This document shows positions 38,491 to 39,318 of a stretch of DNA of 64,000 nt, in pieces. A model generated the notes under the pieces. That model was not told where the DNA came from. It searched no databases and saw nothing but the letters and a program-made list of their open reading frames with translations. The stretch is from Escherichia coli (lineage in GTDB: Bacteria; Pseudomonadota; Gammaproteobacteria; Enterobacterales; Enterobacteriaceae): NCBI RefSeq assembly GCF_050920415.1, contig NZ_CP169309.1; one strand, 5' to 3'. A program made the position numbers and the translations under genes. Within the stretch, counting starts at the first letter, position 1. The number at the start of each line of letters is the position of its first letter.

Positions 38491-38520
38491 AGAAAAAGGC
38501 AGCCTGTGGTTGCCTTTTGC
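38491..38520. terminator. Terminator-like hairpin with flanking A/T tracts in the yceD-yceF divergent region
   Basis: aaggcagcc-tgt-ggttgcctt with one G-U pair; A-run before and T-run after. Confidence 0.3.
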
Positions 38521-38650
38521 CAATAATTCGCACACATTGCGGGTTACTGCTTTATTTTCGTTCAGTGCTGATAACGAACATCAACCTGCAAAACGAAGCG
38601 CATAGTTTAAAATGGCTATCATCAATACGCTATATCTGATGGAAAAAAAT

Positions 38651-39235
38651 ATGCCTAAACTTATTTTAGCCTCCACCTCGCCCTGGCGCCGCGCGCTACT
38701 GGAAAAACTGCAAATCTCTTTTGAATGTGCAGCACCAGAGGTCGACGAAACCCCACGCAGTGACGAATCACCGCGACAGTTGGTGCTTCGACTGGCGCAG
38801 GAAAAAGCGCAATCTCTGGCGTCACGTTATCCGGATCATTTAATTATTGGTTCAGACCAGGTATGTGTTCTTGATGGCGAAATCACCGGTAAACCGTTAA
38901 CGGAAGAAAATGCCCGTCTGCAATTACGCAAAGCCAGCGGCAATATCGTCACCTTCTATACTGGACTGGCGTTGTTTAATTCGGCGAATGGGCATCTGCA
39001 AACAGAAGTGGAGCCTTTTGACGTCCATTTCCGTCACCTGAGCGAGGCGGAGATTGATAATTACGTGCGTAAGGAGCATCCCCTGCACTGCGCGGGTAGC
39101 TTTAAGAGTGAAGGATTTGGCATTACGCTGTTTGAGCGTTTAGAAGGGCGTGACCCTAACACGCTGGTTGGTTTACCGCTAATCGCGCTGTGTCAGATGT
39201 TACGTCGGGAAGGGAAAAATCCGCTAATGGGATAG
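38651..39235 (+). CDS. yceF: Maf-family nucleoside triphosphate pyrophosphatase YceF
   Basis: 194 aa from ATG at 38651 ([14 protein letters not shown]). Confidence 0.93.
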
Positions 39236-39243
39236 TTTTTTGC

Positions 39244-39318
39244 GCCGGATGCGGTTATGTCGCATCCGGCAATCGGTGCTGGCTGCCTGATGCGGCGTAA
39301 ACGCCTTATCAGGCCTAC
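39244..39318. repeat. REP elements (two copies) between yceF and rluC
   Basis: GCCGGATGCGGTTATGTCGCATCCGGC and GCCTGATGCGGCGTAAACGCCTTATCAGGC. Confidence 0.7.

Follow-up and report, generated by a model that had tools for sequence, protein, structure and literature searches.

The small RNA SraB of Escherichia coli was found by Argaman et al. (2001) and is also known under the alias pke20. According to the account given in PMC7967276, the 2001 study mentioned a SraB product of 105 nt and confirmed the RNA by in vitro transcription. The 5′ end of SraB is debated, the annotated RNA comprising 169 nt and the RNA-seq form about 110 nt; a transcriptional start site (TSS) '60 bp downstream' of the annotated start is seen in several datasets (PMC7967276). 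In the annotation of K-12 MG1655, the ncRNA gene sraB (b4418) occupies 1146589-1146757 (+) and ends 36 nt before yceD. SraB is highly enriched in co-immunoprecipitations of ProQ, forms a 1:1 complex with this protein and is bound in vitro by the N-terminal (FinO) domain on its own (PMC5393179).

Three groups of described elements are relevant for comparison. ProQ-type terminators, such as those of the cspE and malM 3′UTRs and of the Sib sRNAs (Stein et al. 2020), consist of a hairpin with an A-rich 5′ flank and at least four U. The FinO domain of ProQ recognises terminator hairpins followed by at least four U, and an A-rich stretch directly 5′ of the stem, which pairs with the U tail, distinguishes ProQ-specific from Hfq-specific RNAs (PMC7367173). 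5′UTR-derived sRNAs (Adams et al. 2021) arise when a single TSS gives rise to a short terminated RNA as well as to a read-through mRNA. Finally, bidirectional terminators between convergent genes are perfect or near-perfect palindromes that have an A run on one side and a T run on the other and can fold on both strands.

Here we analyzed a hairpin located between the divergent genes yceD and yceF in a stretch of 64,000 nt of E. coli DNA (NCBI RefSeq assembly GCF_050920415.1, contig NZ_CP169309.1), referred to as the window. The hairpin is, with high confidence, the intrinsic terminator of SraB, transcribed towards yceD. As such the element is already known: SraB has been in the literature since 2001, both Rfam and the K-12 annotation include it, and its 3′ end is contained in a published map. 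Compared with SraB (b4418, RF00077), the element of the window has the same locus, strand, 3′ hairpin and U tail, and there is no substantial difference. Transcript data were taken from K-12 or Salmonella, which are strains other than that of the window. K-12 coordinates were converted by the relation window = 38489 + (1146757 - K-12 coordinate), which was checked on the start codons of yceD, yceF and plsX. The features of the region are compiled in Table 1.

Table 1. Features of the yceD-yceF intergenic region in window coordinates.
Feature	Position	Strand	Details and basis
SraB terminator hairpin	38494..38518	-	RNA AAAAGGCAACC-ACA-GGCUGCCUUUU; sequence, fold, Rfam model positions 140-164, conservation/covariation
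SraB terminator parts	5′ arm 38518..38508, loop 38507..38505, 3′ arm 38504..38494	-	
U tract UUUUUCUUU	38489..38497	-	A run pairs with the initial four U; mapped SraB 3′ end at 38489
SraB sRNA as annotated, 169 nt	38489..38657	-	RF00077 match; equivalent of K-12 b4418
Short SraB form, ~110 nt	38489..38598	-	Start at K-12 1146648/9; RNA-seq, SMRT-Cappable-seq, fold
Content of short SraB	helix 2 38557-38597, helix 3 38523-38547, terminator	-	Fold
Inferred -10 TAAACT of the short SraB / long-leader yceD promoter	38605..38610	-	Position relative to mapped TSSs; hexamer inferred
yceD core promoter	38462..38490	-	-35 TTGACT 38490..38485, 17-bp spacer, -10 TAATAT 38467..38462; consensus scan
yceD TSS	38454 (K-12 1146792)	-	After GCGCGCC, 2 nt before AUG 38452; SMRT-Cappable-seq
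yceD coding sequence	37931..38452	-	ORF list, RefSeq annotations; downstream gene into which read-through transcripts extend
yceF coding sequence	38651..39235	+	ORF list, annotation

On the plus strand, the sequence contains the 9-bp stem with one G-U pair, an A run before it and T residues after it, as the original prediction had described (aaggcagcc 38496-38504, tgt 38505-38507, ggttgcctt 38508-38516; G.T pair G38502.T38510). Two extra A-T pairs lengthen this stem to 11 bp, including the one G.T, and extend the hairpin to 38494-38518 (AAAAGGCAGCC-TGT-GGTTGCCTTTT). An A run at 38493-38497 precedes the stem, and TT followed by GCC comes after it. On the minus strand, the G.U pair appears as a single A.C mismatch (A38510.C38502). 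The core of the intrinsic terminator reads GGCAACC-ACA-GGCUGCC with this one mismatch, is extended by four A-U pairs and runs into UUUUUCUUU, a U tract broken by one C.

RNA folding of the plus-strand hairpin yielded -15.2 kcal/mol (z = -3.26), a value reached by none of 200 dinucleotide shuffles, while the minus-strand hairpin folded with -11.6 kcal/mol (z = -2.09; 4 of 200 shuffles as good). The minus-strand fold is weaker because the G.U pair turns into an A.C mismatch. In the fold of the 110-nt SraB transcript, the pairs of the core hairpin had probabilities of 0.96-1.00. When all hairpins with a fixed geometry of 11 bp and a 3-nt loop were scored for their tails across the 64-kb window, the minus-strand reading was the most T-rich of all (4.63), and the plus-strand reading scored 3.17. 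The hairpin escaped a simple terminator scan on both strands, because the stem is mismatched on the minus strand and the tail is short of T on the plus strand. We rejected this miss as a sign that no terminator is present, as the Rfam match and Term-seq agree with each other. The hairpin is real, is not a chance palindrome and is conserved.

The Rfam model of SraB (RF00077) matched the minus strand over its entire length (model positions 1-169 of 169) with a score of 209.8 bits, the gathering score being 130, and an E-value of 5e-46 to about 1e-45. In this model the hairpin corresponds to the last helix (positions 140-164), which is directly followed by the UUUUUCUUU tail, and the consensus structure leaves the A.C position unpaired. 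Over 231 aligned nucleotides the window differs from K-12 by one substitution; hairpin, tail and yceD promoter are identical. SraB is situated between yceF and yceD on the yceD strand, and the same layout was found in the best 80 of 296 loci (see below). The hairpin lies between both genes, as originally proposed, and is not an orphan element of their promoter region, since it belongs to SraB on the minus strand. The closest RefSeq genome carries no PGAP annotation of sraB, and the region therefore probably looks like an empty 'promoter region'. RepRanger labels sraB as 'REP'; we rejected an assignment to REP elements, as this program tags generic palindromes. The hairpin is single-copy in E. 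coli (median of one place per genome) and thus does not belong to a repeat family.

Term-seq data of K-12 show that RNA 3′ ends map to this hairpin, so that the lack of 3′ ends, given in the original prediction as grounds for refuting it, does not apply. A 3′ end at K-12 1146757 (+), equivalent to position 38489 of the window, is classified as 'primary' for sraB (Adams et al. 2021, PMC7815308, supplementary file 1). It coincides with the last U of the CUUU tail, and the flanking sequence given in the table ends with ...GGCUGCCUUUUUCUUU. The name 'sraB' occurs three times in this file, covering three growth conditions, and the coordinate prefixes 114675 and 114676 appear there solely as the 3′ end at 1146757. 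The Rho-termination table of the same study (file 2) contains no coordinate with the prefixes 114670-114676; Rho-independence of the SraB terminator is supported only indirectly. A GC-rich stem with a U tract, a 3′ end mapped to the end of this tract in K-12 and compensatory changes in the stem together make up the picture of an intrinsic terminator.

In the best-supported reading, RNA polymerase starts at the sraB promoter (mapped start at ~38598, annotated start at 38657) and copies the GC-rich stem followed by the U tract; release of the RNA most likely takes place at 38489. The product is an RNA of ~110 nt (or 169 nt) ending in the hairpin. Not all transcription ends there: some polymerases run on through yceD-rpmF and give rise to a long-leader mRNA, and a second promoter, starting right after the U tract, yields an almost leaderless yceD mRNA.

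To describe the conservation of the hairpin, we used a scan anchored on YceD and considered the best 80 of 296 confirmed loci, all from Enterobacteriaceae species and with YceD identities of 88-100%. In every one of these 80 loci the hairpin was present at equal distance from yceD, and 45 distinct variants of it were found among them. The lower seven base pairs (AAAAGGC/GCCUUUU) are almost invariant, while the upper pairs and the loop vary across the same best 80 of 296 loci, as seen in Leclercia (GGCAGCC-UGA-GGUUGCC), Cedecea (GGCGCUG-UUUC-CAGGCC) and one Citrobacter sp. (GGCUU...AAGCC). Pairs 8-11 of the upper stem covary (A-U/U-A/G.U; C-G/U-A/G-C). The A.C mismatch occurs in E. coli, Salmonella, Kosakonia and Kluyvera, and its position is taken by G.U, U.G, G-C, C-G or U-A elsewhere. 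Among 5424 complete E. coli genomes, 5113 showed an identity of at least 99% over the 60 nt that surround the hairpin, and the region is single-copy.

RNAalifold, applied to a MAFFT alignment, did not recover the terminator, and the five pairs that it returned were spurious, because differences in loop length had been gapped asymmetrically. We therefore replaced it by a hand-specified structure and by outside-in pairing. Under the hand-specified structure, 87.9% of the cells of the terminator helix were paired, and changes on both sides were found in 4 of 11 pairs. For the whole two-helix structure, 83% pairing was observed versus 34-51% in slid controls. The covariation signal is modest, because most of the stem, namely its lower part, never varies. 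Folding energies failed to indicate the strand, as sense and antisense folds were better in 24 and 21 of the 45 variants, respectively. The assignment to the minus strand is instead based on the U tail, the Rfam match and Term-seq. On the sRNA strand, CCTTTTTCTTTGACT was identical in 75 of 80 species (best 80 of 296 loci), and the tail of the opposite strand reads TTTTGCC, or TTTCGCC in several genera. The overlapping yceD promoter, and not the RNA, could account for much of the invariance of the sequence.

The upstream part of the RNA is less widely distributed. Helix 2 represents an insertion of ~57 nt, confined to sequences of the Escherichia, Salmonella, Citrobacter and Intestinirhabdus types (compared with loci L023, L036 and L074 at 1053-1164). 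In 70 of 80 species (best 80 of 296 loci), the transcript predicted between the conserved TAAACT -10 region and the U tract would comprise only 51-53 nt, corresponding to helix 3 and the terminator. Rfam matches in species lacking helix 2 remained under the gathering score (44-105 bits). Matches of ~112 nt in other genera might be taken for a conserved counterpart of the E. coli 'short form'; this was rejected, as the alignment shows that helix 2 is missing there.

The sequence of the SraB 3′ end resembles ProQ-type terminators, as the stretch GCAAAAGGC...GCCUUUUUCUUU combines an A-rich 5′ flank, a hairpin and a U tail of the kind described in PMC7367173. The four A before the stem pair with the first four U of the tail, which leaves little single-stranded U. 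We infer that the hairpin may also be a ProQ-binding and stabilizing 3′ module. A difference from the other ProQ-type terminators is that, as HDX suggests, the linker and the C-terminal domain of ProQ also bind the longer SraB (PMC5393179).

Downstream of the terminator, the SraB U tract runs straight into the -35 region of yceD, so that the terminator ends exactly there. The genes rpmF and plsX are located downstream of yceD. A missing 5′ leader has already been noted for yceD (PMC4378010), and we noticed no Shine-Dalgarno sequence in front of yceD, in line with a near-leaderless mRNA. The segment 38450-38497 (-), CCTTTTTCTTTGACT-N17-TAATAT-GCGCGCCCT-ATG, was almost invariant in the best 80 of 296 loci (around 1155-1203 in L003-L082). 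From its sequence, the GC-rich discriminator of the yceD promoter suggests stringent-type control. Termination just upstream may limit occlusion of the yceD promoter by upstream transcription.

On the other side of the intergenic region, the 169-nt SraB is antisense to the yceF 5′UTR and the first yceF codons. The sequence TTTTAAACT is nearly invariant across genera. The same applies to ATTTTAAACT (38605-38621), which contains overlapping putative -10 regions, TAAACT on the minus strand (TSS 38598) and TAAAAT at 38608-38613 on the plus strand (yceF TSS 38621). Judging from hexamers assigned by the mapped TSSs, sraB and yceF appear to be served by two divergent promoters arranged back to back, and 23 bp separate their start sites. 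A distal yceF TSS lies at 38546 (K-12 1146700); a -35-like TTGCCT (38510-38515) in the right arm of the hairpin and a weak -10 CACATT (38533-38538, both +) are its presumed promoter elements.

One alternative is a regulated attenuator, an idea already contained in the original prediction. The hairpin would then terminate transcription conditionally within the yceD-rpmF(-plsX-fab) leader, switched by an alternative fold, a protein such as ProQ or the growth rate, and SraB would be a by-product. Part of this idea was borne out, as transcripts starting at sraB do read through into yceD-rpmF. SMRT-Cappable-seq of K-12 (PMC6131387 supplementary data 1-2) recovered full-length primary transcripts from 1146648 to 1147708, which span yceD-rpmF. 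In the two condition tables, 429 and 320 reads started at TSS 1146648 (window 38598), and 681 and 595 at TSS 1146792. Arithmetic on these counts places ~35-39% of the yceD-rpmF primary reads of at least 1 kb at the sraB TSS; this method drops RNAs below 1 kb, SraB-sized ones included, and its read counts give no termination efficiency. The SraB terminator is thus leaky.

The TSS at 1146648, the 3′ end at 1146757 and the full-length transcripts 1146648-1147708 correspond to the layout of an attenuator, in which a terminated product (Term-seq) and read-through mRNAs (SMRT-Cappable-seq) coexist from one TSS, the latter with the substantial share of long reads given above. Further points in its favor are that the order promoter-hairpin-yceD is kept in the best 80 of 296 loci, even where the RNA would have only ~52 nt, and that SraB of Salmonella is repressed by ppGpp (PMC3963941). 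A switch, however, was not apparent. A search for an antiterminator in the nascent SraB RNA found no competing fold; the nascent 5′ arm is unpaired, and the core pairs form with a probability of at least 0.96. The read proportions of the two TSSs were alike in M9 and rich medium, and the literature consulted documents no effect of a ligand or protein on termination. Moreover, read-through of more than 5% occurs at 75% of E. coli termination sites (PMC6131387), so that leakiness alone is no evidence of regulation. We therefore regard a regulated attenuator as unlikely.

The comparison with 5′UTR-derived sRNAs (Adams et al. 2021) leads to the same point. SraB shares with them the single TSS from which both a read-through mRNA and a short terminated RNA arise, but has no evident sensor or antiterminator, is catalogued as an independent sRNA gene and precedes an operon with a strong promoter of its own right past the terminator. 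A related proposal is that the SraB terminator is a tunable gate, at which ProQ, NusA or growth rate/ppGpp would divide the transcription from a promoter conserved across Enterobacteriaceae between a stable, ProQ-bound sRNA and the long-leader yceD-rpmF(-plsX-fab) mRNA. We give this proposal little chance of being correct. If it were true, the long-leader mRNA would be translated differently from the near-leaderless yceD mRNA, and the mismatch would keep the stem weak and thereby allow the partition.

A quite improbable explanation assigns the conserved sequence to the DNA level. Palindrome and T run would be promoter architecture, such as an upstream flank or UP-like region of the yceD promoter and/or the -35 region of the distal yceF promoter, or the site of a dimeric regulator, and the RNA hairpin would be incidental. 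The T run indeed adjoins the yceD -35 region TTGACT, and the promoter-proximal base (GCCTTTTT) is the most invariant part of the hairpin; the putative TTGCCT at 38510-38515 (+) is positioned 17 bp upstream of the weak -10 region belonging to the yceF TSS 38546. This TTGCCT is not conserved, however, and reads CTGCCT in Enterobacter-type sequences. In addition, the upper stem changes its sequence yet keeps its pairing, unlike a sequence-specific DNA site, and the RNA 3′ end maps exactly to the end of the U tract. A role at the DNA level can coexist with terminator function and cannot replace it.

Least of all do the data fit a bidirectional terminator or insulator, in which the palindrome would stop transcripts on both strands and shield yceF and the yceD operon from antisense or incoming transcription, and we consider it highly improbable: biophysically possible, it lacks a substrate and supporting data. 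In its favor, the hairpin folds more stably on the plus strand (-15.2 kcal/mol, z = -3.26), its flanks are symmetric with four A and four T, and of the comparable hairpins in the window only the minus-strand reading exceeds its tail score of 3.17; about half of the species variants, too, fold more stably in the antisense direction. Against this stands that both yceF TSSs listed by SMRT-Cappable-seq, 38546 (K-12 1146700) and 38621 (1146625), are downstream of the hairpin, so that yceF mRNA does not contain it, and that none of the listed plus-strand operon entries starts inside yceD. Neither the insulation from antisense transcription nor the termination in either direction that had been suggested earlier is supported. 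No plus-strand transcript across the hairpin and no plus-strand 3′ end was found in the SMRT-Cappable-seq and Term-seq tables; the latter contain no 3′ end at K-12 1146700-1146749. A search of the Adams 2021 supplements for plus-strand 3′ ends and yceF entries returned no entry with the prefixes 114670-114674 and no mention of yceF, and none of the searched coordinates was present in the text form of the Cappable-seq supplements (PMC4782308). The plus-strand tail consists of only four T, or three in several genera, and varies (TTTTGCC/TTTCGCC), whereas the minus-strand tail is invariant. Unlike bidirectional terminators, which separate convergent genes, SraB is flanked by divergent protein genes, and its plus-strand T tail is short and not conserved.

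Several other elements were observed in the neighborhood and in related genomes. A strong 11-bp hairpin, CAGTGCCTGCAGCATTGCAGGCACTG, is located inside plsX at 37538-37567 (-), 87 nt after the plsX start at 37625. Both SMRT-Cappable-seq and Term-seq (1147708, 'internal' to plsX; its score was very high in one condition) place the end of yceD-rpmF transcripts at this hairpin. As the tail AATTCTAATT is not U-rich, this 3′ end may reflect processing or blockage of an exonuclease rather than classical termination. In the spacer between the convergent genes yceF and rluC, the Rfam model naRNA4 (RF02564, REP-derived nucleoid-associated RNA) matched 39243-39315 on both strands with 55-56 bits against a gathering score of 59.5, which is probably an ordinary REP element. 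Weak matches to the Vibrio RNA AS5 (RF02818), below the threshold of 96 bits, were obtained in the rpmF-plsX spacer of Pseudescherichia (L051, 1950-2072, +; 56.8 bits) and upstream of yceD in an Enterobacter sp. with a Cedecea-type upstream sequence (L053, 1006-1129, -; 37.3 bits).

The identification of the hairpin as the SraB terminator holds a lesson for annotation, as sraB is missing from the PGAP annotation of most E. coli genomes and its terminator then appears as an unexplained hairpin in a 'divergent promoter region'. A modest point of biological interest is that the arrangement places a terminator, a promoter and a start codon within about 70 bp. Since the 3′ end of SraB abuts the -35 region of the near-leaderless yceD promoter and a substantial share of the long yceD-rpmF transcripts cross the terminator, the output of SraB is physically coupled to the expression of an operon for ribosome and lipid synthesis.
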